Shown: in pieces, positions 3,196 through 47,145 of the stretch
Layout of the letters: the number at the start of each line of letters is the position of its first letter
Numbering within the stretch: the first letter of the stretch is position 1
Source of the DNA: a virus
Taxonomy: Duplodnaviria; Caudoviricetes
DNA length: 57,594 nt
Direction: 5' to 3' (one strand)
IMG/VR virus record: IMGVR_UViG_3300009604_000012
Span: 1-57,594 of that record
Position numbers and translations under genes: made by a program
Notes under the pieces: model-generated
Seen by the model: only the letters and a program-made list of their open reading frames with translations
What the model was told of the DNA's origin: nothing
Database searches by the model: none

Positions 3196-3199
3196 GGGA

Positions 3200-3208
3200 A
3201 TAGTAGCA
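3200..3208 (-). promoter_or_regulatory. Extended -10 promoter of the early leftward transcript
   Basis: TGcTACTAT on the minus strand, immediately before the structured leader. Confidence 0.5.
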
Positions 3209-3526
3209 CAGTAGATATAGTGACAGTTGTAAGCGTAGGGATTTGGCCTCTAACATGCTGCGGGTGCAGGGGTTACGGGAATGCGGGTCTTGGACAGTCC
3301 CATCTCTGCGTTTGGAATCGTGTAAGTCCTTTGGATTGTGATGGTTAGCGGGATGGTCAAAAATTAAGTGCTTTGTTTACAGTAAGTTAGGTGGAGTCGA
3401 TACAGTTTGGCCTTTAGAATCAACAGGTTACAGCGGGGGCTTTTGGGGCAATCCGCTAAGTCCTTATTACTCTAAGTATTTACGGGGAGGGTTTTTGGCA
3501 GTTTGGAATGGCTTTGGTGGCTACTA

Positions 3527-3571
3527 CGCCAGTGCCAGTGCTACGCCATTGGCGTCTAGGTGGCACTGGCG
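3527..3571. other. Nested GC-rich hairpin
   Basis: CGCCAGTGCCA/TGGCACTGGCG (11 bp) enclosing ACGCCA-T-TGGCGT. Confidence 0.6.
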
Positions 3572-3694
3572 CAGCAGGGGACTTTCGGGCAGGTCACTAC
3601 GGGTCGAGGCTTTTGGTCAGCTTGACCAGTCGCACGGTCAGGTCCGTTAGCTCGACGCTGAGACGCATTAGCTCAGCGAGCAATTCAGCGCGGG

Positions 3695-3889
3695 TCATGG
3701 TCGCACCTTGGTAGCCGCGAGGTAGGCCCGGACGAGTTGGTCTTTGACATCTGGTCTGAGCGTTTGCCAGTGCAGCCATAGCCAGTCATCGGTCTGCTGC
3801 TGGTCGGACTTATCCCCAGCAGTGCGGAGGATGTTGCAAGCGAGTGCTCTTTGCACTCGGGGTTTAGCTATCATGATATCTATCTCCAC
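3695..3889 (-). CDS. Hypothetical protein
   Basis: ORF track. Stop overlaps the ATG of a short leucine-rich ORF at 3597-3698. Confidence 0.4.
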   Translation of the reverse strand: MEIDIMIAKPRVQRALACNILRTAGDKSDQQQTDDWLWLHWQTLRPDVKDQLVRAYLAATKVRP

Positions 3890-3947
3890 GGTGAGTCGGG
3901 ATTGACTCGCTATAGAGATAGACGGCTGAGGTGGCAGGGGCTGACAG

Positions 3948-4091
3948 TTAGAGCAGTCCAGCCTCGGCGGTTACATAGATGATGTAGGCAGCGAGGTGCA
4001 GCAGCCCGATAGTGGTGAGTATCTCAGCGACTGGGAAGGTTCGACGCTGGTGCAGTTCAACTGTGGTGGCTCTGTGGTCTTGGTTGGTCAT
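3948..4091 (-). CDS. Small membrane protein (47 aa)
   Basis: SD AAAGGAG before MTNQDHR...; C-terminal hydrophobic helix. Confidence 0.55.
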   Translation of the reverse strand: MTNQDHRATTVELHQRRTFPVAEILTTIGLLHLAAYIIYVTAEAGLL

Positions 4092-4174
4092 TGTCTGTCT
4101 CCTTTGTAGCTCTTGAGACGACAGTGGTCGGAAAAGGTTTTGATGGGTTACCCCCAGATGGCTTTTTGGAGAAG

Positions 4175-6103: not shown

Positions 6104-7774
6104 TTGGCTGACCGGATTCCCTTCGAGGAGGCTATCGCAGAGCCGATACTCCTCAAGAAACCGTGGATGGACCTGAGTGGCCCACAGAAGGTCATTCTCA
6201 AAGCGCTCTATGGCTTACCATTAACCACGGAAGAACTCGTCTGGTGGAGCATCCTGCAAGGTCCTGGCACTTATGAGCATGACCAACTGGGTTACCCAAC
6301 CACGGTGCAGCATCAGGTTCCCTACACGCCAAAGGAATATGAAGAGTGCTGGGCGATTCTCGGACGACGTAGTGGCAAGAGTCACTCATATCTGGGCTTC
6401 GTCGTGGCCTATGAAGCGCTCCTCGGGGGACACACCCGGTATATTAGCAAGAAGCAAAACTCCCGTATCTTTGTGGTCGCCCAGAAACTCGACCTCGCCC
6501 AGGCGATTATCATGGAGTTCGTGGAGCCAATCTGCTCGGCCACCCCGCTGTTGGAACGAGAAATCAAAAATGTCAACAGTGACGGGATTGTCCTTAAAAA
6601 TCGGCAGGTAATCGCACCCGCGCCCCCGCATATCAAACCCTTCCGAGGATTTGCTGTGCCCGTGGTGGCAATGGACGAAGTGGCCTTCTGGTATAAGGAC
6701 AGCGAAAGCGCCAACCCGGACTACGAAGTCGAGCGAGCGGTCTCCAAGGCCCAAGCACAGTTCCCTGACCGAAAGCGTGTCGGGGCATCGACCCCCTGGA
6801 GTAAGGAGGGATTGCTCTACGATGCGCACAGAGCAGGGACACAAGGCTCCCGCTTGGCGCATGATGACCCCCAGAAGAGTCGATTCAAGCATGCGCTTGT
6901 CGTGCATGCCCCCACACCCGCGATGCAGGTGCCATTGATCGGGATGGACCGGAACTATTTCCAAAAAGAATATGACCGGGACCCCGAAGGCTATGTCAGG
7001 GAGTTTCTCGCGAAGTTCGTGGATGCGGTCTCGGGATTGTTCACTGAGGAGCAGGTGCGAGCCGCGCAGGAAGGCCAACCCTCCTATGCACAGGGGCGGG
7101 ATGCGCTCCCCCGCGCTGACCACCCAGAAGATATCATCCCCTACTATATCGCCGCCATCGACCCGGCGTTTCGTCGGGACCGCTTTGCATTTTGCGTAGG
7201 GCATTACGAACCGGAGCGGGGATTCGTCCAAGACCATTTGCAATGGTGGGAACCCGAACAGGGCAACCCGATCAACCCCGCATTTGTATTGGATGACATC
7301 AGCCATACGCTCCTGAGATTCAAGGTGGCGATGGTCTTCAGTGACCAATATCAACTGGAATCTCTCCAACAACTGGCCTTGGACAGAGGATTCAGCATCC
7401 AGGGGATGGACTTCACCGCGAAGAGCAAAGCGAAGGTCTATGGCAATCTGTTGACGTTGTTTAGAACCGAGAAGGTAAAGTTACTCAAATGTGAGGAACA
7501 GGTCCAAGAACTGATTTCTTTGGAACGCCACAACTCCGCATTGGGGAATGTGTCGATTAGTGGGCGCTCAGGGGTACATGATGACATTGCCACCGTAGTG
7601 GCGTTGTGTGCGCGGCAGGTGATTTGGCTCATGCCGAGAACCCCGGAGGATATTGCCAAGATCAACCCCCATCGGGACCCGTCAACACATGAGAAGTGTA
7701 TGACGCAGATCATCAATAAAAAACGCCGGAAGGACATGCTTGACAGGCTTGAACGTGGTGGCTACTATTTTTAA
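6104..7774 (+). CDS. terL: Terminase large subunit
   Basis: Walker A GRRSGKS, Walker B VAMDE, motif III ASTP, nuclease AIDPA and HDD. Confidence 0.95.
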   Translation: MADRIPFEEAIAEPILLKKPWMDLSGPQKVILKALYGLPLTTEELVWWSILQGPGTYEHDQLGYPTTVQHQVPYTPKEYEECWAILGRRSGKSHSYLGFVVAYEALLGGHTRYISKKQNSRIFVVAQKLDLAQAIIMEFVEPICSATPLLEREIKNVNSDGIVLKNRQVIAPAPPHIKPFRGFAVPVVAMDEVAFWYKDSESANPDYEVERAVSKAQAQFPDRKRVGASTPWSKEGLLYDAHRAGTQGSRLAHDDPQKSRFKHALVVHAPTPAMQVPLIGMDRNYFQKEYDRDPEGYVREFLAKFVDAVSGLFTEEQVRAAQEGQPSYAQGRDALPRADHPEDIIPYYIAAIDPAFRRDRFAFCVGHYEPERGFVQDHLQWWEPEQGNPINPAFVLDDISHTLLRFKVAMVFSDQYQLESLQQLALDRGFSIQGMDFTAKSKAKVYGNLLTLFRTEKVKLLKCEEQVQELISLERHNSALGNVSISGRSGVHDDIATVVALCARQVIWLMPRTPEDIAKINPHRDPSTHEKCMTQIINKKRRKDMLDRLERGGYYF

Positions 7775-8579: not shown

Positions 8580-10676
8580 ATGCCCAAAGAAGACCTCGCT
8601 GGCGATGTGAACGTGAAGTTCGAGGGGTGGCGAAAGGATAGACGCCCACACGAGCTTCAGTGGTTCATCAACGCCGCGCATCGTCGTGGGCAACAGACCA
8701 GCGAAGCCGAACCTGTCTGGAGACGGGTGCGCTCGGTAGATGACATCGAGGAACCGCTGAGTAAGCGGCGACCGTCGATCAATCGCCTGCAAGCCAAGCA
8801 TCGAGCACGGTTCGCGAAGTTCGCTCGGGCGCGTCCCATGCCCATCGTGGTGCCCTTTACCAGTGACCGCAAGGACCGACAGGACGCGAAAGCCTCCGAA
8901 CGTGCCTTGAATTACTACTGGGAAAAGCATGGCATGGAAACCAAATACCTCGATGCGCTGCTCTGGGCAGCGGATTGCGGGAAGAGTTTCTGGTGGGTGC
9001 ATTGGGATAATGACGCGATTGTGCCCGTGAGTGAAGAACGCGACGATGGCACGATGGGCCTCGCTGATGAACAACTTGGGGATATCCGGGTTGAAGTGGG
9101 CAATGCCTTTGAGGTGCTTGTCGCGGACCCGAAGATTTCGCGCATCTCCGACCAACCCGAAATCATGCGGGTGAAGGTGCGGGATGTCGAGGACCTACGG
9201 AAGCGCTACCCCAGCTCGGCCAAGAAAATCCACGGGGACACCACCTATCATCATTACTTTGAGTTCGAGCGGCAGATGGCAACATTGGCGACGAGACCCT
9301 TGGGGTCCTTGGCAAGTTTGTCCATGCCGGTGGGCGAGAGTGATGGCTCGAATAAAGCAGAACTCCCCAAGGCATTAGTGAAAGAACTCTTCACGGCACC
9401 GAATGCCACCCACCCCAAAGGACGGTATGTGGTGGTTATTGGGGATGTAGTGGTAAAAAAGCAGGATGAATTGCCATTTGGGTTCTTTGATTTGGAAAAC
9501 CCCTTCCCGGTGGTGGAGTTTCAGGACATGCCCCAGGTCGGGCAATTCTGGACCTCGACGTTCATTGAACAACTGATTCCGATCCAACGTGCCTATAACA
9601 ATCTCCGGGCGCAGTTGGAAGAACAGATTGACATGAACATCCACCCCAAGTGGTTGGTGCCCAAACAAGCACAGATTCCCGACACAGCATTCACCAATGC
9701 CACCGCAGAAGTGGTGGAGTGGAACTATATCCCCGGTATGCCGGAACCCCATGCTATTACGCCGGGGAATATCGCTGCCGATGCGTGGCGATTCGCGGGG
9801 ATGCTCCGTGAGGAACTCGATGATGTCTCCCAAATCCAACCCTCGATTGAGGGGAAAGTCGGTTCAGCAAAAAGCGGATTCCAAACGAACCTCCTCCAAG
9901 AAGCCTCCGACGCGGTCCACGCGCCCGATGCGCGGGGTTTTGAACTGTCCATCCAAGACGCCGCGATAAAAATAAGACGGATGATGCGCTTGGGGTATAC
10001 GTCTGAGCGCATGATGTCATGGGCCGGACGGAACTCCTCCCCGGAGGTATTCGCGTTTAGTAACGCACAGATTGATGAACATGCGTCGATTCGGGTGCAG
10101 GTCGGGTCAGCGATTGGTGGGCTGAAAGCCACACAAATCCAACAGGCCCTTGACTTGTATAGTGCCGGGTTGTTGGGTGATCCGAATGACCCCGAAGTCA
10201 AACGCAAGACTTTGGCATCGCTGGACCTGCGTGGGATGGAAGACGCGCAGGAACGGGCGAATCTGGACGAAGAACAGGCACGAGCGGAGACGATGGACAT
10301 GCTCCGTGGTGAAGCGGTCACCGTGCCGCAGTTCTATGAGAATCATGACATTCACATCGCAGCGCATACCGAGGAGCTAAAAGGTCCTGCGGCAAAGACA
10401 ATGGACCCGCAGATACGCCTCGACCTCCTCGCACATATTCTGTTGCATGTGAACTTTGTCAATCCACAGGTGGCTTTCGGCCTGACTCAGAAGTATGAAC
10501 TAACAGAGCGACTCGTACGACCGGGGTTGATCGAACCGCCGCCACCGCCTCCTCCACCGGGCGTAGGCCCACCGGGAGGGGGACCACCCGGACCAGCACC
10601 GGGACCGCCGGGTCCTCCTGGTCCACCACCAATGGGACCCCCGCCGGGACCTCCGGGACCGCCCACCGTGGGCTAA
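8580..10676 (+). CDS. Portal protein (P22-like) with Pro/Gly-rich tail
   Basis: 698 aa, between terL and scaffold. LIPIQRAYN...HPKWLVP pattern; SAKSG motif. Confidence 0.88.
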   Translation: MPKEDLAGDVNVKFEGWRKDRRPHELQWFINAAHRRGQQTSEAEPVWRRVRSVDDIEEPLSKRRPSINRLQAKHRARFAKFARARPMPIVVPFTSDRKDRQDAKASERALNYYWEKHGMETKYLDALLWAADCGKSFWWVHWDNDAIVPVSEERDDGTMGLADEQLGDIRVEVGNAFEVLVADPKISRISDQPEIMRVKVRDVEDLRKRYPSSAKKIHGDTTYHHYFEFERQMATLATRPLGSLASLSMPVGESDGSNKAELPKALVKELFTAPNATHPKGRYVVVIGDVVVKKQDELPFGFFDLENPFPVVEFQDMPQVGQFWTSTFIEQLIPIQRAYNNLRAQLEEQIDMNIHPKWLVPKQAQIPDTAFTNATAEVVEWNYIPGMPEPHAITPGNIAADAWRFAGMLREELDDVSQIQPSIEGKVGSAKSGFQTNLLQEASDAVHAPDARGFELSIQDAAIKIRRMMRLGYTSERMMSWAGRNSSPEVFAFSNAQIDEHASIRVQVGSAIGGLKATQIQQALDLYSAGLLGDPNDPEVKRKTLASLDLRGMEDAQERANLDEEQARAETMDMLRGEAVTVPQFYENHDIHIAAHTEELKGPAAKTMDPQIRLDLLAHILLHVNFVNPQVAFGLTQKYELTERLVRPGLIEPPPPPPPPGVGPPGGGPPGPAPGPPGPPGPPPMGPPPGPPGPPTVG

Positions 10677-10706: not shown

Positions 10707-11564
10707 ATGCCTGATACCTTACCCTCGGCTGAAGAAACGCTTGAAGCGACTCAGAACACTGAGACTTCAGAAGCGTCATCTGAACAACCACACGCTGCCC
10801 CTGTACTTTCCGATGACACCACCGTCAAGATGGACATCGGAGGAGAAGAGCAGAATGTCAGCCTCAAGGACCTGCGTTCTGGGTTCATGCGCCAGCAGGA
10901 CTACACCCAGAAAACACAGGCAACCGCTGAAGACCGACGCTCCTTGGAAGCAGCGGCCCAGCAACTCCAGCAACGCGAAGCGGCATTAACAGATTTGCTG
11001 GCTGACCCACAGAAGCTCATGCAACTCGTCGCGGCTCGCGGAGGGCAACAGCAGCAGGAAGTGCCATTAGCTGATACAGATGTACCAACGGTTGGGACAC
11101 TCAAGAAACTCTTGGGGGAATCCCAGAACCAAGTGCGTCAGGAACAACAGGCTGTGCAACAACAGATGCAACAACAGCAGGTTGTTCAGCAAATGGAAGC
11201 GACTGCGAATGATGCCTTCGGGGAAGTGTTCTACAACATTCCAGATTTGAAAGCGGTGCCCTTTGTCGGGGATACGCTGAAGAAGATGGCATTGGAGAGC
11301 AATCCCAAAACGCTGGATCAAATGCGATCAGCGATTGTCGATGCAGGGAAGAAGCTGTCAAAGCAGTTAAATATGAAACCACCAAAAGCTGCCAAGCCGC
11401 AAGCGGTCTCGCAGCTTCAATCGGGGATTGAACCACCTGGAGGATCTGTTGCCCCACCACCACCAGACAAGACCTACGGCAAAGGCCGGAGTATTGACTG
11501 GGGGGACATCGATAAAGATGCCATGGCATGGGTGGAACAGCAAATTCAAGGAGGGAAATCCTAA
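10707..11564 (+). CDS. Capsid scaffolding protein
   Basis: Acidic N-terminus, MRQQDYTQKTQ motif typical of scaffolds, coiled coil, precedes the capsid gene. Confidence 0.85.
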   Translation: MPDTLPSAEETLEATQNTETSEASSEQPHAAPVLSDDTTVKMDIGGEEQNVSLKDLRSGFMRQQDYTQKTQATAEDRRSLEAAAQQLQQREAALTDLLADPQKLMQLVAARGGQQQQEVPLADTDVPTVGTLKKLLGESQNQVRQEQQAVQQQMQQQQVVQQMEATANDAFGEVFYNIPDLKAVPFVGDTLKKMALESNPKTLDQMRSAIVDAGKKLSKQLNMKPPKAAKPQAVSQLQSGIEPPGGSVAPPPPDKTYGKGRSIDWGDIDKDAMAWVEQQIQGGKS

Positions 11565-11579: not shown

Positions 11580-12809
11580 ATGGCGAATATGAATCTCACC
11601 ACAGCCGCCAATGTGCTGAAGACGTTTTATCTTCCGCCATTGCGTCGGTTGTTGAACAACCAGACGATTTTTTGGAATCGTTTGGAACGCAACGAGAACT
11701 TCAACGTAGAGGGAAAAAACTTTACGGTGCCGTTGCATGTCAGTCGGCATACGCAGGCTGGCGCGGGACGTGCTGAAGAAGGCACACTGCCAGCGAAGGA
11801 TTCGCAGGGATATAACCAAGCGGTCGTTCCCGCCAAGTATATCTATACGCGCATCCAGATTTCGGGGCAGGTCATCAGAGCCACCAAGAGCAATGCGGGT
11901 GCCTTCATCCGTGCGGTGCGGTCTGAAGTTGAAGGAGCCACCCGCGATACCAAACGGTCAGCCAACCGGCAGGCCCATGGTGACGGTCGGGATGCGTTGG
12001 CCTACTACGTGAGCGGGTCAGGGACCTCGGTTGTTGCTGATGACAACTTGGGGAACTCCTTTACCCATGTGGGGCCGAAGGCCACCACGGTTGACTTGAT
12101 CGATGTCTCGGACAACTCGACCGTTCTCAACAACAGCACCACCATCTTGGCTGGTGCCGATGTCGCCACCGGGGTCACCATGACCTTGGGCGATTCCATC
12201 TCCGGGTCAAAAGCGGATGGGGACTATTGGGTGCTTGAAGATACCCTTGGGAACCAGATGACCGGGTTGGAAGCGATTGTGTCTGCATCGAATCCTCCGT
12301 TGTTGAGTGGTGGGTTGCATGGCATCGTGGTGTCAGGGAACAACTGGTGGCAGTCGCAGATTGTGGGCGATGACACCTCAATGGTAGACCTGCGCTTTGC
12401 GAACATGCAGCGTGTCATTTCCAAAATGTCACAGGCCAGCGATTATGATAAGGATGATATCGAGTTTGGTCTCGCCTCCTATTTCATGATCGATAAGTAT
12501 TACGAACTCTGCGCGAATGAACGTCGTGCGGTGAACGTGATGCAGTTGGACGGTGGGTATGAAGGTGTGGAGTTCTCGGGGATTCCGCTGGTTGCGGATG
12601 CCCAGGCGAAGCACAATCGTATCTACTTCGTCGTACCAGATGCGTTGAAGATTTGCCGGATGTCAGACTTCGACTGGATGGACGACGATGGCGCGGTCTT
12701 GAACCGTGTCGTGAATACGGATGCGTATGAAGCAACGCTGTTCCACTATGGCGATATCGCTTGCGTGGCACGGAATGCCTTGGGCGCATTGGTCGGTCAG
12801 AACGAATAA
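11580..12809 (+). CDS. Major capsid protein (HK97 fold)
   Basis: 409 aa after scaffold; AEEGTLP, IQISGQVI, GLEAIV and FSGIPLVAD segments typical of major capsid proteins. Confidence 0.9.
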   Translation: MANMNLTTAANVLKTFYLPPLRRLLNNQTIFWNRLERNENFNVEGKNFTVPLHVSRHTQAGAGRAEEGTLPAKDSQGYNQAVVPAKYIYTRIQISGQVIRATKSNAGAFIRAVRSEVEGATRDTKRSANRQAHGDGRDALAYYVSGSGTSVVADDNLGNSFTHVGPKATTVDLIDVSDNSTVLNNSTTILAGADVATGVTMTLGDSISGSKADGDYWVLEDTLGNQMTGLEAIVSASNPPLLSGGLHGIVVSGNNWWQSQIVGDDTSMVDLRFANMQRVISKMSQASDYDKDDIEFGLASYFMIDKYYELCANERRAVNVMQLDGGYEGVEFSGIPLVADAQAKHNRIYFVVPDALKICRMSDFDWMDDDGAVLNRVVNTDAYEATLFHYGDIACVARNALGALVGQNE

Positions 12810-14617: not shown

Positions 14618-17600
14618 ATGAAAAAGTTGGTAGCGAGTCTCCTGTGTGTGGGGGTCCTAGGAGTGGTGTCTGCGTCCGCGCAAGACCCTTCAGCGGGTCC
14701 CTTTACCACAGTGACCGAGATTACAGTTACTGGCATTGCCGATGTTGATTCCCTGCGTTTCGACGCAGAGAACCTCGATGTTATGCTAGCCCGAGGTGGT
14801 GCGAATAGATTGGAATTGGCAGATGGAGATTCCTTCAGACTAATCAATGGCACATTCCAATTCGGGGGCGGCGATGGCGTTGCTGTCACGGAGGATGGCG
14901 ACGGAGCGATAACCTTTACAGGGGAAGGAAATGGGAGCGACGAGAACCTGACATGGAACTATGACGACACCGCGAACACCGTGGTGATTTCCAGTAGCTC
15001 CGGCGTCACAACCCTCACCTACACTTCCATCGGGGCGACCTTCGGGGCGGCTCTATCGGTGAGTAGTGGGGTGGTAACTATCTCCGATAGCTCCGCAGGA
15101 GCGTTGGATGTAGGAGGTGGTCTGAATATCGGGACCGGGAATGTGGCCTTGATTGGTACGGATGGGCGCATAAACGGTCCCTTGAGTTCCACGATTATTG
15201 ATGATCTCAGCGGAGCGAACCTCACGACACTCAACGCAAGCAACCTCTCATCTGGCACCGTGGCTACCGCAAGATTAGGAAGTGGCACTGCGAGTTCCTC
15301 TACCTTCTTACGGGGGGATGGGTCATGGACCTCAGTTGTTGCGGGACCCGGTGGGTCTGATACCCAGGTACAGTTCAATGATGGTGGTGCTTTGGCGGGG
15401 GATTCGGGGTTTGTTTTCGATAAGGATGCGAACTCGGTGGACATCACCGGCACAGGCGCAGATGCGCTGGATGTGGGTGGTGGGTTAAACATTGGAAGCG
15501 GCAACGTGGCGCTCGTAGGGACCGACGGGAAGATCAGCGGTCCCCTCAGTTCGACCATTATCGATGACCTGAGTGGCGCGAATCTTACCTCACTCAACGC
15601 TGGGAATATCTCGTCTGGCACCCTCGCGGTAGCGCGTGGAGGCACAGGAGCAGCATCTTTAACTGATGGGGGATTATTGTTTGGGAGTGGCACTGGAGCG
15701 GTCACAGCATTGGGTGTGGCGACGAATGGACAGATTCCTATTGGCGACGGCACGACAGACCCGCAGCTTGCTACTATTTCAGGCACCTCCAACGAAATTG
15801 ACATCACTAACGGGTCAGCCTCGATCACGGTGGGGATTCCGGCGTCAGCCACGATTACCACAGCCTTGACCATCAGTGGCACAGGGGCATCGTCGTTGGA
15901 CATTGGTGGTGGATTGAATGCTGGCACGGGAGATGTCGCGTTGGTTGGAGATGATGGCAGGATCAATGGACCACTCAGCTCAACGATTATTGATGACTTG
16001 AGTGCAGCGAACCTGACTTCGATCCCCGCAGGACAACTCACCGGGTCGATATTGAATGCACGGCTACCCACCAACATCGACATAGGCGGGACCCTTGATG
16101 TCACCGGAGCGACAACATTGGATAGCACCTTGGCACTCGTAGGGGCTGTCACATTTAACGATGCCGGGGGTGATGTCGACATTCGCGCCGAAGGCGATAG
16201 CGTCACCAATCTCTTCACCCTCGATGCCTCGACAGACCGTATTGGTATTGGTGTCACAGCACCAGACAACATCCTGCATGTATTACAAACCGGTGCAGAC
16301 TGGGGGATGTTTATCGATTCCTCCAGCACCTCCTACGCTCCGGGCATTCAGCTCAGACCCAACGGCACGGCGAAAGGGTGGGTCTCCGCAACCAACGCAG
16401 GTGCGTTGTTGTTGGATGGCAACTCGATTGTCGTGGTGAATGAGGGGTCAGCTGATAAGGACTTTCGGATTGAATCAGACGACAACGCCAATATGCTCGT
16501 GGTGGATGGAGGCGATGACCGGGTAGGGATCGGCAAAGCCTCTCCGACAGTGACCTTAGATGTAAATGGTGCAACGGACATTTCTGGACATACGGCACTC
16601 GACTCGACGCTGTCCATCGGGTACGGGTCGATTGGCGACTATCAGCAAGTCTTCATCGGCGGCACCCTTGCGTCTGGCGGGGCATCCAGCCACGCCGAAG
16701 CGATGGTAGTGCAGACCGCGATCACGGGCGCGACAGGCGATACTGGGTGGTTGGCTGGGGTGAAGATTGGACCTGCTATTACAACACAAGCCTCAGAGAC
16801 GATAGTCCATGCGACGGCGCTAATTGTCAACGAACCGGAGATCACCGTTGGCAGTGGCGCGACGGTGACGACGGCGAGCACGTTGTGGATTCCAAATGTC
16901 CCCACTGAGGGGACGAACAATTACGCCTTGTTCGTAGATGACGGTGTGTCTCGATTCGACGGCAATGTGGGCATTGGTGGGGTGACGGTTCCTGGCGCAC
17001 GGTTGGAAATAGAGGACGGCGGCATCTCACACCCTGGTCCGTTGTTTATAAGTCGGCAGGATGACGACGATGTGTGGAACATGATGTTGGTCAATGACTC
17101 CTACAGCACGACGGCAGTATATGGTGTGCGGATGACCGTTGCGACAGATGGCGATTTCAATATTTATGGATCGGACAAGACGAGCAGCCCCGGCCACATC
17201 TCTTTCTTTACAGACGAAGCACGGCGAATGCAGATCGGCAGTAATGGACGGCTGGCGTACAATCTCGCCGATTTCAACAATGTGTACGGCAATCTGGAAA
17301 TCGAGGGGATCGGAGACGACATCGGGGTCAATATGTATCCCGACGACGCTGACGCGCACCAGCTGGTGTCGATGGGTGCTGGTGGCGACGGAGATGCTGC
17401 CAGACGGGGCGTGTTGAAGATCCTCGCCACCGATGACGGAACAAACAATTCGATTGCGATGGGATCTGTCGGTGGCTTAAGTTCCGATTTCAACATTTTT
17501 ACGCGCCATCCCACCACTGGTCTTGGTAGGGTCATTCTGCGTATAAAGGGCGACGGATCGACTGAAGCAACTGGGGCATTTTCAAAAGCGAGTGGGAGCT

Positions 17601-18157
17601 TTAGAATCCCTCACCCGATCTGGCCTGCGACTCACGACCTAGTGCATAGTTTCGTGGAATCGACAGACACGTTGCTCCTGTATCGGGGTGTCGCAACGGT
17701 GGATGGTACAGAGACAATCGATCTCGATGCCTATCTTGATTTGGTTGATGATACGTGGGATGCCCTAACGCGAGACCCACAGGTATGGGTGAGTAATGCC
17801 TCTGGGTGGGAACAGGTGCGTGGCACCGTGACTGATGGCATCTTGACGCTCGAAACCCAAGACCCGACTGCGACTGGGGTTGAGGTAAATTGGCTTATTG
17901 CGGCTGAACGGCAGGACGATCATATTAAGGAAACAAACTGGACGGACGATGATGGGAACCCCATTCTTGAACCACTGAAGCCCCTGTTTAGTACCGTTGC
18001 ACCTCCGACATTTGAGGAGAGCGTTGGTGACATCTATCCAGACATCGAAGTTGAGGACACAACGCCAGTGGCACCAGAACGATATCCGGCATTCCGCTTC
18101 ACGGACGAGAACGGGAACACAATTACGGAAGACGAAACCGATGAAGATATCATTTGA
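14618..18157 (+). CDS. Tail fibre/spike-like protein with N-terminal signal peptide
   Basis: Gly/Thr/Ser-rich repeats, RIGIG/NVGIG fibre motifs, C-terminal KASGSFRIPHP chaperone-like domain; N-terminus MKKLVASLLCVGVLGVVSASA|Q. Confidence 0.8.
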   Translation: MKKLVASLLCVGVLGVVSASAQDPSAGPFTTVTEITVTGIADVDSLRFDAENLDVMLARGGANRLELADGDSFRLINGTFQFGGGDGVAVTEDGDGAITFTGEGNGSDENLTWNYDDTANTVVISSSSGVTTLTYTSIGATFGAALSVSSGVVTISDSSAGALDVGGGLNIGTGNVALIGTDGRINGPLSSTIIDDLSGANLTTLNASNLSSGTVATARLGSGTASSSTFLRGDGSWTSVVAGPGGSDTQVQFNDGGALAGDSGFVFDKDANSVDITGTGADALDVGGGLNIGSGNVALVGTDGKISGPLSSTIIDDLSGANLTSLNAGNISSGTLAVARGGTGAASLTDGGLLFGSGTGAVTALGVATNGQIPIGDGTTDPQLATISGTSNEIDITNGSASITVGIPASATITTALTISGTGASSLDIGGGLNAGTGDVALVGDDGRINGPLSSTIIDDLSAANLTSIPAGQLTGSILNARLPTNIDIGGTLDVTGATTLDSTLALVGAVTFNDAGGDVDIRAEGDSVTNLFTLDASTDRIGIGVTAPDNILHVLQTGADWGMFIDSSSTSYAPGIQLRPNGTAKGWVSATNAGALLLDGNSIVVVNEGSADKDFRIESDDNANMLVVDGGDDRVGIGKASPTVTLDVNGATDISGHTALDSTLSIGYGSIGDYQQVFIGGTLASGGASSHAEAMVVQTAITGATGDTGWLAGVKIGPAITTQASETIVHATALIVNEPEITVGSGATVTTASTLWIPNVPTEGTNNYALFVDDGVSRFDGNVGIGGVTVPGARLEIEDGGISHPGPLFISRQDDDDVWNMMLVNDSYSTTAVYGVRMTVATDGDFNIYGSDKTSSPGHISFFTDEARRMQIGSNGRLAYNLADFNNVYGNLEIEGIGDDIGVNMYPDDADAHQLVSMGAGGDGDAARRGVLKILATDDGTNNSIAMGSVGGLSSDFNIFTRHPTTGLGRVILRIKGDGSTEATGAFSKASGSFRIPHPIWPATHDLVHSFVESTDTLLLYRGVATVDGTETIDLDAYLDLVDDTWDALTRDPQVWVSNASGWEQVRGTVTDGILTLETQDPTATGVEVNWLIAAERQDDHIKETNWTDDDGNPILEPLKPLFSTVAPPTFEESVGDIYPDIEVEDTTPVAPERYPAFRFTDENGNTITEDETDEDII
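15100..16050 (+). repeat. Three ~53-aa internal repeats in the fibre gene
   Basis: LD(V/I)GGGLNxGxGxVAL(I/V)GxDGxIxGPLSSTIIDDLSxANLT at about 15100, 15463 and 15895. Confidence 0.85.
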
Positions 18158-25106: not shown

Positions 25107-25595
25107 ATGACCCCAACGATTGATACGCTCCTCGATGAAATCCTGGCCCGAGAGGGATCGAAGGATACCAATGATCCAAATGATTCGGGTGGGCGTACCA
25201 AATTTGGAATTAGCCAACGCTGGCACCCAGCTGCGTGGGAAGACGGACCACCCACACGCGAAGCGGCGAAGGAGATTTTCTTTAGTCTCTATGTGATGAA
25301 GCCTAAGTTGCATCTGGTTACCCCGGATTATCTCTTGGGACAGCTTGTGGATTATGCCGTGCTGAGTGGGCCACATCGAGCTATCGTCGCGTTGCAGCAT
25401 ATTGTGGATGTTTCCGAGGATGGGTTGCTGGGACCGATCACCTTGGGCGCACTAGCAGCACAGGAACCACGTACGGTGAATAACGCTATCGTAGATCGGC
25501 GTGTGTTGCTCATGACACGGTTAGTACAACAACGACCAAAAGACTTGGTGTGGCTCTATGGGTGGGTCTCTCGGGCACTGAAATTTAGGGTATAA
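25107..25595 (+). CDS. Endolysin, glycoside hydrolase family 108 with PG-binding domain
   Basis: REG...DPNDSGGRTKFGI, DYAVLSG, DGLLGPITL, GWVSR. Confidence 0.92.
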   Translation: MTPTIDTLLDEILAREGSKDTNDPNDSGGRTKFGISQRWHPAAWEDGPPTREAAKEIFFSLYVMKPKLHLVTPDYLLGQLVDYAVLSGPHRAIVALQHIVDVSEDGLLGPITLGALAAQEPRTVNNAIVDRRVLLMTRLVQQRPKDLVWLYGWVSRALKFRV

Positions 25596-39245: not shown

Positions 39246-39998
39246 ATGCCGAAGAAACGCAAGCGGAATGTGATCGTCTGGGATATCGAATCCACGAATC
39301 TCTCAGCGAATTTCGGCTATGTACTCTGTATTGGTTGGAAGCGTTTGGATTCCCCACGGGTCTACGTACCTGCGTTACGTGATTTCAATGGGGTGTGTAA
39401 GACATGCCACCAAGTGAACGATCCGATCAACGACCGTAGATTACTGGAGCATATCTATCCCATCCTTGCAGAAGCCGATGCGTGGATTACATGGTTTGGA
39501 AAGGGGTTCGACCAGAAGTTCGTCAACACCCGACTGATGCACCATGGCATGGCTCCACTGCCGCCAGTTCCACACATTGATGGGTGGCGCACCGCGAAAT
39601 CCAAACTAAAGCTCACCTCGAACCGACTCGCAACAGTCCAACAGTTCCTTGATCTCCCAGTGAGTAAGACCTCAGTGGGTGGAAAGCAATGGAACCTGGC
39701 AAGTGGAGGTGATCCGAAGGCAGCGGATTACATCATTGACCATTGCAGAAAAGATGTGAAGGTGTTGGAGCAAGCCTACGAAAAGATGCTCCCCCTGATT
39801 GTGGATTCACCACATATGGGGTTGATCAAGGGGAAGCCAGAGGGGTGTCCACGTTGTGGGTTGCCTACACTCAAGACGAATCCCTCTTGGTTTTATTCTT
39901 CGGCCACCCGCAGTTACCAACGATACCAATGTACCGCATGTGGGGGGTGGTGTAAGGGGAGTAAGGCGATTGATCGCTCTACCATTATGGCTATTTAG
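39246..39998 (+). CDS. RNase H-like 3'-5' exonuclease (RNase_H_2) with C-terminal Zn ribbon
   Basis: WDIES, FGKGFD, HCRKDV; CPRCG...CTACG. Confidence 0.88.
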   Translation: MPKKRKRNVIVWDIESTNLSANFGYVLCIGWKRLDSPRVYVPALRDFNGVCKTCHQVNDPINDRRLLEHIYPILAEADAWITWFGKGFDQKFVNTRLMHHGMAPLPPVPHIDGWRTAKSKLKLTSNRLATVQQFLDLPVSKTSVGGKQWNLASGGDPKAADYIIDHCRKDVKVLEQAYEKMLPLIVDSPHMGLIKGKPEGCPRCGLPTLKTNPSWFYSSATRSYQRYQCTACGGWCKGSKAIDRSTIMAI

Positions 39999-40003: not shown

Positions 40004-40672
40004 ATGAAGGAGTCGGAGATGCGGTGGCTACTAGCGGTAAGCCTTGTGCTTGCCATGTGCATGACTCCCCAAACAATAGCGAAAGACCTGAGTGGGCTAG
40101 CAGAACAGATGCGGGAATCCATTACCCGCATTCGGATGACCGGACCTGTGGTGCGATGGGGCACCTGCTCTGCGTTCTCCATTAACCAAGAGCGCGGGTG
40201 GGGCCTAACCGCAGAGCATTGCGTGGTCACGGTGAATGGCTTTGAGTTTCGGGTGGTCGATGACCAGTCCAGACCATTGGAGATTATTGCTCGGTCTTCC
40301 ACCATCTTCCCACCACGACCGGAAGACGACCTTGCGTTGCTGGAGGGGGATATCTTTCGGGAACTCCCTGCACTCACCGCACTCACCATCGTACCCGAGG
40401 TTGGCACGGTTGTGGCGACGTATGGTTTTGCGCGTGGTGAACGGAATCCATTCTTCTATGTGAGTAATGTCGCTCGCACCCGACCGAGGTGGTTCAGTTT
40501 GGAAATGGCTGGCTCACTCCTCGGCGGGATGAGTGGTGCCCCTGTCGTGAATGACAAAGCACAGGTGATTGGTCTGGTGACCAAGGGCACAGCCTCGAAC
40601 ACTTACATCATTGGGAGTTGGCATTTCCAAGAACTCTACAAAGCTGCTGTCAAACAACATGAAAACCAATAA
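40004..40672 (+). CDS. Secreted trypsin-like serine protease
   Basis: LTAEHCV, DDLALL, GMSGAPV catalytic triad; N-terminal signal peptide. Confidence 0.9.
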   Translation: MKESEMRWLLAVSLVLAMCMTPQTIAKDLSGLAEQMRESITRIRMTGPVVRWGTCSAFSINQERGWGLTAEHCVVTVNGFEFRVVDDQSRPLEIIARSSTIFPPRPEDDLALLEGDIFRELPALTALTIVPEVGTVVATYGFARGERNPFFYVSNVARTRPRWFSLEMAGSLLGGMSGAPVVNDKAQVIGLVTKGTASNTYIIGSWHFQELYKAAVKQHENQ

Positions 40673-40685
40673 AGGAGGAAAGACT

Positions 40686-40760
40686 ATGACTTGGACAAAA
40701 CCTGAGATCAAAGCGATTGCCTTGAACATGGAAGTTAGTCTGTATGTAACCGCGCACTAA
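40686..40760 (+). CDS. pqqA: PQQ precursor peptide PqqA-like (24 aa), not in ORF track
   Basis: MTWTKPEIKAIALNMEVSLYVTAH*: W-x-K-P leader, E-V-x-x-Y core, canonical length; AGGAGG SD at 40673-40678. Confidence 0.88.
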   Translation: MTWTKPEIKAIALNMEVSLYVTAH

Positions 40761-40764
40761 CCAC

Positions 40765-41295
40765 ATGGACAGCGCACTCGGGTGGATTGGGCAGATTGCG
40801 GCGTGGGTTCGGCAGTTTATTCCAAAATGGATCATCATCCCCACGACACATGGTGGGGTGAAGTGGGTCAGAGGGAAGCGACTGGTCGAACTCACGCCGG
40901 GGATACACTGGTATTGGCCGGTCGTGACGGTCCTGCAAACATATCCTATTGTTCGCCAGTCGGTGGACCTGCGCCCACAGGTGATGGTCGCCGCAAACGG
41001 GAAGACCTTCTCGGCGGGGGTGGTGGTGACCTATACCGTGGAGGACCTGAAGCAACTCCTCTCAACCACCTTTGATCCTGATGAGGTGATGTCTGAGATT
41101 TCCCTCGCGGCGATTTACTCAGTACTAACCACCTTGACACTTGAAGAACTCCAGACCAGTGATATCTCTGCGACACTGACGGAGGCGATTCAGGAACTGG
41201 TCACACCCTACGGGGTGCATGTGGTGCGAGCGGCACTCACGGAGATGGCTCCCTGCCGGGTAGTGAAGCTCATCATTCCCCCAGCTATCCAGTAA
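40765..41295 (+). CDS. SPFH/band 7 domain protein
   Basis: GGVKWVRGK..ELTPGIHWYWP...VDLRPQ...VVVTYTVED...YGVHV. Confidence 0.8.
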   Translation: MDSALGWIGQIAAWVRQFIPKWIIIPTTHGGVKWVRGKRLVELTPGIHWYWPVVTVLQTYPIVRQSVDLRPQVMVAANGKTFSAGVVVTYTVEDLKQLLSTTFDPDEVMSEISLAAIYSVLTTLTLEELQTSDISATLTEAIQELVTPYGVHVVRAALTEMAPCRVVKLIIPPAIQ

Positions 41296-42349: not shown

Positions 42350-42621
42350 CCAACGAGTTCTCCTATTGGCACCAGTGTGGCGGTCTGTTTTTCGATGCCG
42401 ACAATTTCCATCTGATCAATCCGACTCCCAGTCTCGACCATCATGGGTCCCATGTCTTCATCGTCTGTGGCTTCAGTCAGTGCAACAAACGGAGCTTCCT
42501 TCGCGAGAGCGACTACCTCTTCCCATGATTGTGCAATGAGATGCACCTGGCCCATGGCTTGTGACCCGTTTGACATGAAGGTGAAGGTCACCTTCCAGTC
42601 AAAAGTTTTTTGAAAGTTCAT
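42346..42621 (-). CDS. Hypothetical protein
   Basis: Likely start MNFQKT, overlapping the polymerase stop (ATGA). Confidence 0.55.
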   Translation of the reverse strand: MNFQKTFDWKVTFTFMSNGSQAMGQVHLIAQSWEEVVALAKEAPFVALTEATDDEDMGPMMVETGSRIDQMEIVGIEKQTATLVPIGELVG

Positions 42622-44144
42622 ACCGTCTCCATGTCGGCCCAGTTTCTTCCGACCTTGACTTCCACATCTATCGTGAGTCCTCCCATTTGTGGGATAGGTC
42701 GCGTCATAATCTCTGTCAGTAAGGCCACTGCTGCATCGACTTTGTCTTCTGGCACATCGAGGCATTGCGAGTCATGGATATGTCCAATGGCACACATATA
42801 CGGTGCCGCCCAACTCTTCCCTAGCAAGGCAAGGTTCTCCCGTTGGAAGAGGGCATTCGAGGATTGCGGTTTGAACGCGACGACAGCGTTTGCATCCTCA
42901 CCCGGTCTGAATTGTTTCGTGCGAGTGTCCTTCGTATAGACCTGATAGTAATAATTGCGTAGTCCCCACGGGGTTTCAAGATAGCCATTGCGCCACGCTT
43001 CTTTTCGCAGGTCCGTGTGCCATGCGGCAAGATCGGGGAGCAGTTGCAGAAACCGGGCAATCTCTGCCTTCGCCTCCTTCACCGAGGGAAAGGCATCGGG
43101 ATACTGCTCATGCAACAGCTTTGCCCCCATGCCATAACTTACACCGTGGGTGACTCGTTTCTTCCGGGCATATAACAACGCATGCTTGGGGCTGTTCTTG
43201 ACCAAGCGTTTGTTCTCAGCGTTCCATTCCAAACCCAGCTCACGACAGGCAGCATAGGCATGCACTCCCTGTCGGGCAATCTCCATGTAGCTTTGTGATC
43301 CCATGAACCACCCCGACATCACCGCTTCGATAGACGAGGAATCCGCTTCAACAAACACACACCCTTCGCTGGGGATAATACATCGCCGCACATCGTCAGC
43401 ATAGGGGACATCCCCACGATGACTGACGTTCATCAGGTTGTGTTCCTGTTGCGCTAACCGAAAGGTCTCTGGGTTGTGGGTGTAGCGTCCATAGATATAC
43501 CCACGCGCATCAGGTATCCACGCATCGACATAGCGGGTCTTGGTGGTGTTGACCTTTCGGCCCTTGAGCACCAGTGCATAGATCGGATGGTCCGTGCCGT
43601 AGTGCTTGACGAGCTTCTGCAACTGGTCTTCATTCAACACCGACCGCTCTCCGGTGTCCTTGTTCAGTCCGAGTGCGTGTTGCTGGTGTGCGGCATAGTC
43701 TTTTAACTGGTCGGTGCTCAGGGGGTTAAACGGCAGACGCACATTGTATTCATTGATGCGTTCGTCTCGGGTGAGAATCTCCGCTTTGTAACAGGGGTTA
43801 AGGGGGATGCCCCCACGCCCCCCTTTCCTCGTGGTGTGCTTCGCTTTCGTAACGGGGTAGGCTCCACACCGTGAGCAAACTTTGGTGGGTTTCCTGACCG
43901 GGATCGGTTCAATGGGGAGGTCGGTCTCGGGTAGGTTCTTGAATCGCTTGGTCGGACGAATTTCCATCGGCGCATGCCGTGCCGCCCACGATTTGTAATG
44001 GTCAACCCGCCGATTGAGCTTGTGTTGTAGGTCAAGTCTCGCCTCATTATCCACACGCACCCCGTGGACCTTGCCCATTTGCCAGAGCACTGGGTCCAGA
44101 TGATGCACGTAGTCCAGATAGAAATCCCAACGGGTTCGTGCCAT
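42618..44144 (-). CDS. polA: DNA polymerase family A, polymerase domain only (C-terminal part of split gene)
   Basis: Motif A EADSSSIE, motif B KKRVTHGVSYG, motif C HIHDS; ends VKVGRNW. Confidence 0.92.
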   Translation of the reverse strand: MARTRWDFYLDYVHHLDPVLWQMGKVHGVRVDNEARLDLQHKLNRRVDHYKSWAARHAPMEIRPTKRFKNLPETDLPIEPIPVRKPTKVCSRCGAYPVTKAKHTTRKGGRGGIPLNPCYKAEILTRDERINEYNVRLPFNPLSTDQLKDYAAHQQHALGLNKDTGERSVLNEDQLQKLVKHYGTDHPIYALVLKGRKVNTTKTRYVDAWIPDARGYIYGRYTHNPETFRLAQQEHNLMNVSHRGDVPYADDVRRCIIPSEGCVFVEADSSSIEAVMSGWFMGSQSYMEIARQGVHAYAACRELGLEWNAENKRLVKNSPKHALLYARKKRVTHGVSYGMGAKLLHEQYPDAFPSVKEAKAEIARFLQLLPDLAAWHTDLRKEAWRNGYLETPWGLRNYYYQVYTKDTRTKQFRPGEDANAVVAFKPQSSNALFQRENLALLGKSWAAPYMCAIGHIHDSQCLDVPEDKVDAAVALLTEIMTRPIPQMGGLTIDVEVKVGRNWADMETV

Positions 44145-44715: not shown

Positions 44716-45034
44716 AGGCAATCGGCTCGGTTTCTTCGAGGACCTCTTCAGCTTCTGTTCGTGCTTCGTCTTTTGCGATTTCAATCTCAGCCCGTAATCG
44801 ACTCAGGGTTTTCTCCCAGAGATTCAGGAACTCTTCTTTCCAAACCTCTGCAAAGGTATGGTTCACATGACCGGACCATGGGCAACAGACCCTTCCGGCA
44901 GCAGACTGTGCATGGATGATGGTTCGTTCGATGTATTCTTGGAATTCCTCGTGATTCCCCGGCTGCTTGGCGATGGCTAAATCCTGTTGGCACTTTCGCA
45001 AGTCCCCAAGTTTGGTGGTCATATTGGTGGTCAT
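44708..45034 (-). CDS. Hypothetical protein inside the polymerase interruption
   Basis: ATGA overlap with the UDG-exo stop; overlaps the MTase start. Confidence 0.65.
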   Translation of the reverse strand: MTTNMTTKLGDLRKCQQDLAIAKQPGNHEEFQEYIERTIIHAQSAAGRVCCPWSGHVNHTFAEVWKEEFLNLWEKTLSRLRAEIEIAKDEARTEAEEVLEETEPIAYG

Positions 45035-46143
45035 AGCTGTTGCCCTTTCAAGACACGTTCAATATGGAGGAAGTTCTCTAGTGCGGCATCCGAATCGATA
45101 CAGTTGTAGAGTGCAGGTTCTGCGAGGTTCAGATGTTTCCACGGTTGAATATGGTCAGAGCACAGTGAGGTCACGAACTCTAATCCTTTGGGCAGGTTCG
45201 GCAACCACACATGAAAGGCATTCATGCCATCGTGCAGGTCTCCGTTCACCTCAACACCAGCATCCCGCACGATAGGGATGTCGAATGCCTTGGCATTCCA
45301 TCCCACCATTGGCCTATTCACACCGAGGAGTGTGGTGATGATTGGCATCCATGGGGCTTGCCATGGCACCGACATCGCATGACCTACGCGAAATGAAAAG
45401 CTGATACGCAGGATGTCTGCGCTGGTGGATTCTCCAAGCTGTGATTCGTCTTTGTTTATTTTATAGGGGGTCTCGATGTCCCACGACAGATAGCAATCGG
45501 GTGTGCGTTCGTATTCCTGCACGAACCGCATCGCTTGGTGGGGGTGGGGGTCGAGGAGATATTTTGGAATGCGTTTGGTAAAGCCATCTCGTGCGATGCG
45601 TATCGCTTTTCTGATGTCACTAATCACTGGGCCTGTCCACTTGGCTGAACTCTTCTCTCGTTTCCGTGGAAGGAGGAAGCTCGGGTGGAAGGTGGGCACC
45701 ACGGGAATCCCCTTGGGTCCGTCGAGTATAGACCCACGGTAGCGCATGATTCCTAATTGACCAGTCAGCCGCCGCATGGGGACATTGCCCAAGGCTACGA
45801 GGGCTTTGGGGGCTAGCCTCTCAATGCTGCCATCAAGTAAGGGCCGACAATGATTGATCGCAGTGAACTCGTAGGGCGCATGTGAGAGTTTGTTCTGTGG
45901 TGGCTGGCAGTGGATGACGTTCTCCACAAAGATATCGTCTCGACTCAGCCCCGCCCGTGCGAGGAGCATACTAAGTTGCCACCCGGCGAGTCCCTGGAAA
46001 TGTTTACCAGTGGCGGCTTCATCTTTTCCCAAGGCTTCTCCCACAACCAGCACTTCCTTGGCGAAGCCTCCATCTGGTATTCCAAATCCAGTTCCCCGCT
46101 TCTCTAGTGGACACCCACGACAGAGCGGCGGTTTGGTGGTCAT
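45031..46143 (-). CDS. Family-4 uracil-DNA glycosylase fused to 3'-5' exonuclease (N-terminal part of split PolA)
   Basis: CRGC, VGEALG, CQPPQN, TFHPS; ExoI WDIET, ExoII GWNAKAFD, ExoIII YNCID. Confidence 0.9.
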   Translation of the reverse strand: MTTKPPLCRGCPLEKRGTGFGIPDGGFAKEVLVVGEALGKDEAATGKHFQGLAGWQLSMLLARAGLSRDDIFVENVIHCQPPQNKLSHAPYEFTAINHCRPLLDGSIERLAPKALVALGNVPMRRLTGQLGIMRYRGSILDGPKGIPVVPTFHPSFLLPRKREKSSAKWTGPVISDIRKAIRIARDGFTKRIPKYLLDPHPHQAMRFVQEYERTPDCYLSWDIETPYKINKDESQLGESTSADILRISFSFRVGHAMSVPWQAPWMPIITTLLGVNRPMVGWNAKAFDIPIVRDAGVEVNGDLHDGMNAFHVWLPNLPKGLEFVTSLCSDHIQPWKHLNLAEPALYNCIDSDAALENFLHIERVLKGQQL

Positions 46144-46970
46144 GCCAGTCGAGCGATAGCTGCCCGGTCTTCATCTTCGACATCGGTGGCGTTGAGATAG
46201 CGCATGGTGGTAGTGATTTGCTGATGCCCCAACAGACGCTGGATGGTGGGTAGTGAGACCTTCTCATCGAGGAGTCTCGATCCAAACTCATGGCGCAAGT
46301 CATGCCACCTGATGTCAGGGGCATCGGCTTTCTTCCGTGCTTGGTCCCACGCATACTGGTTCCACTTAAACAGTGGCTTCCGTGTACCAACCTTCGCCAA
46401 GCGTTCCTTCAATAACACACACACTCGGTCGGTCATTGGAATCTTCTGTGTGCGTTTCTGTTTTTGGATATTTGCAGGTACGGTAATGGTGCGTTTCTTG
46501 ATATCAACATGCCGTGCATGCAGTTGGCACAAGGCACCTCGGCGCAAGCCGGTATCACAGGCCAGCATGAAGAGTGCGCGTAAGGAATCACCCATGTTCG
46601 CAAGCAGGTCACGTTCCTGCTGTTCGGTCAGGCGCACATCCCGTTGGTTCAGCTCAGGTTCCAACGTCAGGCATTGGGGAAACTGAAAGGACCCATACCG
46701 CACGCTCGGTGTGAGAAATTCGGGATACTTTCGGAGCATGTGCTTCATCACCGCACGATAGCGATTGCGTGTGGCGGCTGACCCAGGCATGTGTGTGAGG
46801 TAGGCTTCAAGTGCCTCAACAGTTGGGACATCGCCAAGGTGTTCAGCGATACGTCGAAGGCGACAGACATCTGACGAGATCGACTTACGATAGACACGCA
46901 AGTAGTTCTCTGTATAGCGTTCGACAATATCCGAAAGCGTAACACTGGGAATTAGTATGTTTGTTGTCAT
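46140..46970 (-). CDS. Tyrosine recombinase/integrase
   Basis: TGLRRG, HDLRH, LGH, TTMRY; AGGAGG SD before MTTNIL. Confidence 0.92.
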   Translation of the reverse strand: MTTNILIPSVTLSDIVERYTENYLRVYRKSISSDVCRLRRIAEHLGDVPTVEALEAYLTHMPGSAATRNRYRAVMKHMLRKYPEFLTPSVRYGSFQFPQCLTLEPELNQRDVRLTEQQERDLLANMGDSLRALFMLACDTGLRRGALCQLHARHVDIKKRTITVPANIQKQKRTQKIPMTDRVCVLLKERLAKVGTRKPLFKWNQYAWDQARKKADAPDIRWHDLRHEFGSRLLDEKVSLPTIQRLLGHQQITTTMRYLNATDVEDEDRAAIARLA

Positions 46971-46993
46971 AAGGTATGTCCTCCTACAAAAGT

Positions 46994-47145
46994 GGGAGTG
47001 ACCACAGCTCCGAACCAAAGAAAACCGTAGCCACTCCCTGCGAGAACTCCATCGGAGAACAGACCGTCGTGTCTCCGTCGAGGGAGGTACCGCACTGGGA
47101 GACGGCACCACGGGACCGGCAGTCCTAAGAGAATGGAGTCCCGCA
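46994..47145 (-). other. Structured intergenic RNA upstream of the recombinase (possible terminator/attenuator)
   Basis: Multibranch stem 47039-47145; 18-bp hairpin 46994-47038 followed by ACUUUU. Confidence 0.55.

Follow-up and report, generated by a model that had tools for sequence, protein, structure and literature searches.

Why would a phage carry the gene for the peptide precursor of a bacterial cofactor, and nothing else of that pathway? The question arises from a small open reading frame (ORF) in a virus record of 57,594 nt, the whole of which we analyzed and call here the window. The original prediction took this ORF for a pqqA gene, whose product would either feed the PQQ synthesis of the host or act as a decoy for its enzymes. 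In this pathway PqqA is the sole component that is consumed; the other components, PqqB, C, D and E, are catalysts or a chaperone. With PqqD as its chaperone, PqqE links the glutamate and the tyrosine of PqqA. Trimming of the peptide follows, and the last steps to the cofactor are carried out by PqqB and PqqC (PMC12124388). Since PqqA itself becomes PQQ, each PQQ costs one peptide.

The pqqA gene and its neighbors

Read from the sequence, the ORF lies on the forward strand at 40686..40760. It starts with the ATG at 40686, has 24 codons, and ends with a TAA at 40758-40760. Its product is MTWTKPEIKAIALNMEVSLYVTAH. A Shine-Dalgarno motif, AGGAGG (40673..40678, +), stands right behind the stop codon of the upstream gene (40670-40672), with a spacer of 7 nt to the ATG. 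A 24-codon ORF with AGGAGG in the gap between two genes is what had been described, and letters and coordinates agree with that description.

The upstream gene (40004..40672, +) encodes a trypsin-like serine peptidase with a hydrophobic N-terminus (PF13365, E 2.6e-10). It is a secreted protease, and no PHROG profile matched it. The downstream gene (40765..41295, +) encodes an SPFH/Band 7 protein (PF01145, E 3.4e-17). Together, the Shine-Dalgarno motif and pqqA form a cassette of 96 nt (40669..40764, +; edges within a few bases) that has no counterpart in relatives lacking pqqA. The cassette is packed 0-4 nt from its neighbors, so it is probably on their transcript. A promoter and terminator scan gave sites no more numerous than in shuffled sequences.

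With 24 residues, the product falls within the class of short precursor peptides (about 20-40). It has its own ribosome-binding site and a Trp-x-x-Pro leader, formed by Trp3 (40692-40694) and Pro6 (40701-40703). In PqqA, the leader has a role in PqqD binding. Glu16 (40731-40733) and Tyr20 (40743-40745) are spaced by three residues, as in the PQQ core, and we take them to be the residues that become PQQ. The core of the window peptide carries serine where most PqqAs carry threonine.

Identity as PqqA

The sole Pfam match of the peptide is PF08042 (E 0.0081), with the full profile covered and 16.7 bits against a cut-off of 21.1. In NCBIfam, likewise, TIGR02107 alone matches (E 0.0054) and scores 16.6 bits, its cut-off being 20. 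The proposal that a PqqA profile would recognize the peptide holds in part: both families match it, and both scores stay below the curated cut-offs. In a six-frame search of the whole record, PF08042 matched at a single place, the pqqA ORF (E 0.0053). At E up to 10, weak matches also appeared in 6 of the 14 genomes used as controls for this search.

We scanned prokaryotes, with one genome per species, using a pattern of Trp-Thr-Lys-Pro-Glu, eight free residues, and Glu-Val-[Ser/Thr]-Leu-type-Tyr. The scan gave 75 loci, and 44 of them encode a phage-type peptide. The source records of these 44 are all labelled Acidobacteria, Vicinamibacter* or Bryobacterales. The closest PqqA, identical at 22 of 24 residues, is MTWTKPEIKAIALNMEVTLYVTAR from Acidobacteria bacterium UBA2990 (locus L002, DEAE01000024.1; genome G001). 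Among Vicinamibacterales-labelled MAGs, the commonest phage-type PqqA, found at 19 loci, is identical to the window peptide at 20 of 24.

These bacterial genes stand in PQQ loci. In L002 and L047, pqqA lies tail to tail with pqqC and pqqB, and in L007 it adjoins a PQQ-dependent dehydrogenase gene. The G001 cluster encodes PqqB (416.6 bits), PqqC (350.9), PqqD (66) and PqqE (496.7) within about 4 kb, all above the NCBIfam cut-offs. The PqqAs themselves score 23.2 (L002), 30.3 (L007), 30.9 (L004) and 15.8 bits (L047) on TIGR02107. Given that L047 reaches only 15.8 bits despite its pqqC and pqqB neighbors, this model barely covers the acidobacterial subfamily, which accounts for the sub-threshold score of the phage peptide.

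At the DNA level, the right-hand 19.6 kb of the window was searched against 41 G001-related genomes. The only solid match was 40686-40759, with 85% identity to G001 (E 1.7e-15) and 78% to G049 and G121. The low profile scores and the weak six-frame matches in control genomes would be compatible with a small ORF that resembles PqqA merely by chance. Such a chance ORF is extremely improbable, since it would not be expected to share 85% of its bases with a real pqqA, to cover the full profile, and to place its start, Shine-Dalgarno motif and stop exactly as PqqA genes do. As far as sequence evidence goes, it is ruled out.

Judged by peptide and DNA comparison, the window ORF is a true pqqA by descent, with 22 of 24 residues and 85% of bases shared with the PqqA of a pqqABCDE cluster. 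On this point the original prediction is confirmed. The window peptide and the UBA2990 PqqA both have 24 residues, a Trp-x-Lys-Pro leader and a Glu-x-x-x-Tyr core. They differ in that the phage peptide carries Ser18 and His24, scores 16.6 bits and stands alone among phage genes. In contrast, the bacterial one carries Thr18 and Arg24, scores 23.2 bits and is accompanied by pqqB, C, D and E.

The phage genome around pqqA

The window is a complete tailed phage of 57.6 kb, classed as linear in IMG/VR, with a CheckV completeness of 100 and a GC content of 54.0%. It encodes a large terminase (6104-7774), a P22-like portal (8580-10676), a scaffold protein (10707-11564), a major head protein (11580-12809) and an endolysin (25107-25595). 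An exonuclease subunit of the polymerase is encoded as a separate gene (39246-39998, +), and the polymerase domain of a family A DNA polymerase lies at 42618-44144 (-). A tyrosine integrase is present at 46140-47111, and the phage is probably temperate. The window also encodes a Dam methylase and a PD-(D/E)XK exonuclease. No tRNA genes were found in it.

We scanned 58 window ORFs (16 + 42) against Pfam, and none encodes PqqB, C, D or E, or a PQQ-dependent enzyme. Hence the window pqqA does not sit beside pqqB-E, and the absence of pqqBCDE noted earlier is real among these ORFs. Part of what defines an auxiliary metabolic gene is present here: a gene of host origin, under purifying selection, in a true phage genome with terminase, portal, capsid, endolysin and integrase.

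Selection, capture and natural variants

We compared the window pqqA with L002. The two genes differ by nine synonymous and two non-synonymous changes (dS 1.06, dN 0.04, dN/dS 0.03), and the proteins are 92% identical. The replacements, from window to L002, are S18T and H24R. Both positions vary among host PqqAs too, and L047 has Ser18 and Asn24. The flanks of the two genes do not align, and the DNA match begins and ends with the ORF. A dS of 1.06, flanks that no longer align and a dN/dS of 0.03 point to an old capture, in which the host flank is gone and the peptide has stayed nearly constant. This substitution pattern shows pqqA to be under purifying selection.

Two metagenome relatives of the phage were found with the exonuclease-subunit protein. 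One of them, L093, has a 96% identical subunit, and its contig stops at window position 40301, short of pqqA. The other, L094, has an 85% identical subunit and about 73% identical DNA, and is syntenic from the exonuclease to the polymerase gene. L094 lacks pqqA. In it, the stop of the protease gene and the start of the SPFH gene overlap as TAATG, and the window has 96 additional bases there, at about 40669-40764. We dropped a functional tie of pqqA to the protease or the SPFH protein, both genes being directly adjacent in L094 without pqqA.

All or part of the stretch is present in 20 sequencing-run rows, and every one is labelled marine, seawater or marine plankton metagenome; 13 of these 20 rows may have been the source of the window DNA. 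Contigs of four other runs were aligned to the region. One X17 contig has no pqqA; in it, 40660 and 40765 are separated by just 8 letters, which differ from those of the window. Since both L094 and this contig lack the 96-nt cassette, pqqA is accessory. X17 records 15 and 16 cover 40686-40989, with pqqA still beside the SPFH gene and a different sequence upstream. Compared with the window, these two contigs have 50 and 58 differences in about 303 aligned bases.

Within the ORF, the differences listed in the marine runs are 40738 G>C, which changes Ser18 to Thr, and the synonymous 40748 A>G and 40754 G>T; a further 148 differences lie across the stretch beyond those listed. In several run contigs the match begins at 40686 and the flanks are different, which is what other pqqA genes from these waters would be expected to give.

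The likely host

The relatives of G001 overlap a sample from the order of G002, whose record is labelled Vicinamibacterales, and from this overlap we infer that G001 belongs to Vicinamibacterales. The pqq locus of G001 has a GC content of 50.9%, which is close to the 54.0% of the phage; other Vicinamibacterales loci are at about 70%.

G001 is a MAG of 3.6 Mb in which 95 stretches match PF01011, the propeller family of PQQ dehydrogenases, at E up to 1e-10; by hand count these are about 72 separate genes. This quinoprotein expansion is extreme. The genome has one pqqA match only. Such an abundance of PF01011 fits a host with a very high PQQ demand. The original prediction implied a PQQ-producing host. 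In agreement with it, the nearest PqqA comes from a lineage that makes and uses PQQ heavily, with a full cluster and these roughly 72 PF01011 genes. Taking pqqA alone as the guide, our guess at the host would be a marine acidobacterium of the Vicinamibacterales type.

The whole window was also compared with the 41 G001 relatives. Apart from pqqA and weak short matches, no prophage, spacer or other solid DNA match appeared. Weak matches to the capsid protein, at 24-28% identity, turned up in 3 of the 251 genomes searched within the order of G002. Neither the SPFH protein nor the protease, used as queries, was found in any of the four genomes G001-G004. A 30-nt match in G225 was considered as a CRISPR spacer and rejected, since no repeats lie alongside it and it is not a CRISPR array.

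Lone pqqA genes in other phages

An IMG/VR scan with a PqqA alignment gave two contigs. The first (L091; 19 kb, 44% GC) is of siphovirus type and encodes MVWSKPEMKSISLNMEVTLYVTAR at 4001-4072, between the major tail protein gene and another tail gene. Its PqqA is of the acidobacterial type and scores 21.4 bits on TIGR02107. The second (L092; 12.7 kb, 33% GC) has pqqA at 1854-1925, near genes for a formaldehyde-activating enzyme (Fae; 491-1090, E 2e-65) and a PRPP synthetase (3178-4113). Its gene content suggests a methylotroph phage that carries several auxiliary genes related to C1 metabolism.

In a second IMG/VR scan, made with a more proteobacterial alignment, 217 of 237 pattern stretches encode PqqA. 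We took forward the best 80 of these 217. PqqB, C and E proteins from five bacterial loci served as queries for the neighboring genes, and a pqqB-like neighbor was present in one of 82 viral loci checked over 3-4 kb on each side. All 84 viral loci have an ORF of 23-25 codons with a Trp-x-x-Pro leader, a Glu-x-x-x-Tyr core and a Shine-Dalgarno-like GGAG or AGGA motif, and they encode 35 distinct peptides. Scores of viral copies on TIGR02107 are 34-49 bits. The reactive glutamate and tyrosine, whose loss in phage homologues would have spoken against the PqqA reading, are kept in 35 of 35 distinct viral peptides from the 84 loci, an invariance that is partly ascertainment because one search pattern required the core. 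The Glu16 and Tyr20 columns are invariant in two PqqA alignments (A2 and A4) too.

We checked 51 ORFs around 8 of the 80 loci against PHROG, and phage genes stand beside pqqA in all eight. More precisely, these neighbors encode a head protein, a ribonucleotide reductase, SSB and UvsX, a clamp loader and a RegA-like repressor, and a tail fibre. Eleven IMG/VR contigs, several of about 40 kb, carry an enterobacterial-type pqqA 300-450 nt from the contig end, adjoining tail-fibre genes and with no pqqB downstream (L122, L123, L125, L166, L167, L169-L171 and L174-L176). These genes may be phage-borne; alternatively, a prophage may have inserted between pqqA and pqqB of the host, which would leave the host pqqA at the prophage border.

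Twelve GenBank phage records also have pqqA, and nine of them belong to cultured phages of Methylophilales or Methylophilaceae. They are the Methylophilales phages Venkman, Melnitz (four records), MEP301, MEP401 and MEP402, and the Methylophilaceae phage P19250A. The others are two records of "Acinetobacter phage MD-2021a" and one of an uncultured Caudoviricetes. In three cultured methylotroph phages, the pqqA ORFs lie at 1501-1569 (L179), 1495-1566 (L180) and 1501-1569 (L181).

None of the three cultured-phage records that we inspected annotates the gene as pqqA. In Venkman it is unannotated and lies between gp26 and gp27 on the opposite strand. In Melnitz-1 a "hypothetical protein" annotated on the reverse strand covers it, and a tRNA-Leu comes right after it. 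In P19250A it fills the gap of genes 0030 and 0029, also unannotated. On TIGR02107, where the cut-off is 20, the three peptides reach 40.0, 34.0 and 38.8 bits. The word pqqA is absent from the Melnitz paper.

INPHARED gave no match with 3.1 kb of window DNA or with the window peptide. IMG/VR gave nothing with the SPFH protein, with PolA, or with a strict DNA pattern for Trp-x-Lys-Pro ... Glu-Val-[Ser/Thr]-x-Tyr. By homology and gene context, the loci described above show that a lone pqqA is recurrent in unrelated phages and is mostly unannotated.

A proposed role in substrate supply

We propose that the window phage carries a captured acidobacterial pqqA whose peptide supplies the consumed PQQ substrate to the enzymes of the host, a role that the sequence comparisons make fairly probable. 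A marine temperate phage would have captured pqqA from an Acidobacteriota host of the Vicinamibacterales group. The captured gene would have shrunk to a 96-nt cassette, with a ribosome-binding site and 24 codons, between two phage genes. The phage peptide would then feed the PqqD, E, B and C of the host as a sacrificial substrate, in infection or as a prophage. The resulting PQQ would keep the many periplasmic PQQ dehydrogenases running, and hence respiration. From these comparisons we infer that the peptide is translated, that host PqqD and PqqE accept it, and that the phage gains from it. Substrate supply is the most economical reading, because the phage carries only the consumable, and this is nearly identical to that of the host. 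On the other hand, we count against it the sub-threshold scores, the dispensability of the gene, the serine in place of threonine in the core, and a host link that comes through pqqA alone.

The same biochemistry could have another timing and another beneficiary if pqqA were a lysogenic-conversion moron, a second copy that raises PQQ in lysogens. The integrase at 46140-47111 and the accessory distribution of pqqA within the phage group would fit this, as would the gain that bacteria have from extra stand-alone pqqA copies (PMC9851590, available sections). However, the cassette itself contains no promoter-like site, and pqqA also occurs in strictly lytic-looking T4-like contigs and in cultured lytic methylotroph phages. 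A moron seems to us unlikely. The peptide might instead be a decoy that occupies PqqD and PqqE and lowers host PQQ, or that is diverted to another product. Its host-like leader makes PqqD binding plausible, and Ser18 and His24 deviate from the commonest residues. Nevertheless, the window peptide retains Glu16 and Tyr20, as do all 35 distinct viral peptides, Ser18 is also found in the host PqqA of L047 beside pqqC and pqqB, and variants from the runs carry Thr18. A decoy has no need for the near-identity to the substrate that a dN/dS of 0.03 reflects. With both reactive residues kept everywhere and a peptide that tracks the substrate sequence, a decoy function is very unlikely.

More improbable still is that pqqA has no function and is a recently acquired scrap of host DNA, still to be lost. 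It is very short and is missing from close relatives, as such a passenger would be. Against this, the synonymous sites are near saturation relative to the closest host gene, with the protein 92% identical; no host flank is left, and the DNA match stops at the ORF borders. The two X17 contigs with 50 and 58 differences in about 303 bases retain pqqA next to the SPFH gene, and unrelated phages have acquired pqqA independently. These saturated sites, clean borders and repeated captures make a passenger unlikely.

Relation to known systems

The statement that no characterized phage example was known stands in one respect and fails in another. Our literature search found no experimental study of a phage pqqA. 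Viral pqqA genes do appear in two metagenome papers, in their available text, and in the 12 GenBank phage records. The Lake Baikal virome paper (10.1101/2020.04.02.019802), in the part available, reports that the VP_266 representative encodes PqqA beside methanol dehydrogenase, and proposes a boost of methanol oxidation. The available part of a 2026 study of reservoir sediments (PMC13188868) lists pqqA, pqqD and pqqE as virus-encoded phosphate-solubilizing genes. As in the window, these are precursor-peptide genes on viral contigs read as auxiliary metabolic genes.

These published viral PqqAs, which we compared by text and not by sequence, come from predicted methylotroph phages with methanol dehydrogenase or from a list of phosphate-solubilization genes. 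In contrast, the window phage has a marine acidobacterium as its predicted host, its 96-nt insertion is mapped, and selection on it is measured. The acidobacterial origin with its host guess, the exact 96-nt cassette, the measured purifying selection and the finding that a lone pqqA is common in phages and mostly unannotated, cultured ones included, are what this analysis adds. A further paper, on RiPP mining (2024), ties a bacterial PqqA family to defense islands by co-expression, at least in its available text.

In bacteria, a place beside pqqB-E is usual for pqqA but not obligatory, and the gene also works apart from pqqBCDE. The methylotroph described in PMC9851590 has five copies of pqqA, of which three lie outside any operon, and its pqqA expression is highest when PQQ synthesis peaks. 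In this organism PQQ output goes along with how many copies of the precursor gene there are and how strongly they are expressed. Unlike the phage copy, these extra copies are chromosomal and belong to the producer itself (PMC9851590). The cyanophage psbA offers an analogy only: there too, the phage brings that part of a host energy system which is consumed fastest, and relies on the host for everything else. Unlike PqqA, the psbA product is no substrate but a large membrane protein belonging to a complex, and its expression and benefit have been shown experimentally.

In a broader sense, pqqA could be a widespread and largely overlooked "sacrificial-substrate" auxiliary gene, independently acquired by phages of at least three host groups and kept as the sole consumed part of its pathway. 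We regard this generalization as evenly balanced. The host groups involved appear to be marine Acidobacteriota, Methylophilales/Methylophilaceae and further low-GC hosts. With 23-25 codons, it is perhaps the smallest auxiliary gene, and because of this size gene callers miss it. The resulting annotation gap is visible in all three cultured-phage records inspected, where pqqA is unannotated or hidden under a spurious "hypothetical protein".

If the generalization is true, viruses in the sea and in lakes would partly control PQQ supply and, with it, the periplasmic oxidation of alcohols and sugars. Provided that the peptide is produced and used, fewer than 100 bases would let a phage steer the supply of a respiratory cofactor through the only consumable of the host enzymes. 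With about 72 PQQ-dehydrogenase-like genes in a 3.6-Mb genome of the host lineage, this lever would be large. Since cultured methylotroph phage-host pairs carry pqqA, the idea is directly testable at the bench.

Other features of the window

The family A polymerase looks split over three ORFs, at 39246-39998 (+), 42618-44144 (-) and 45031-46143 (-). The last of these contains a UDG-superfamily domain and matches the middle of the PHROG polymerase profile. The Dam methylase gene lies between the ORFs at 42618-44144 and 45031-46143.

Near the left end, the ORF at 390-1259 (-) encodes an AAA_5 ATPase that is CobS/MoxR-like and carries the PHROG label "porphyrin biosynthesis". Its neighbor at 1351-2538 (-) encodes a DUF7192 protein. 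Finally, the segment 15190-15782, within an ORF of 1179 aa (14618-18157), has weak DNA matches at several places in two G001-related genomes (69-75% identity over 75-137 nt, E 2e-6 to 6e-5). These matches may reflect a repeated or low-complexity domain.
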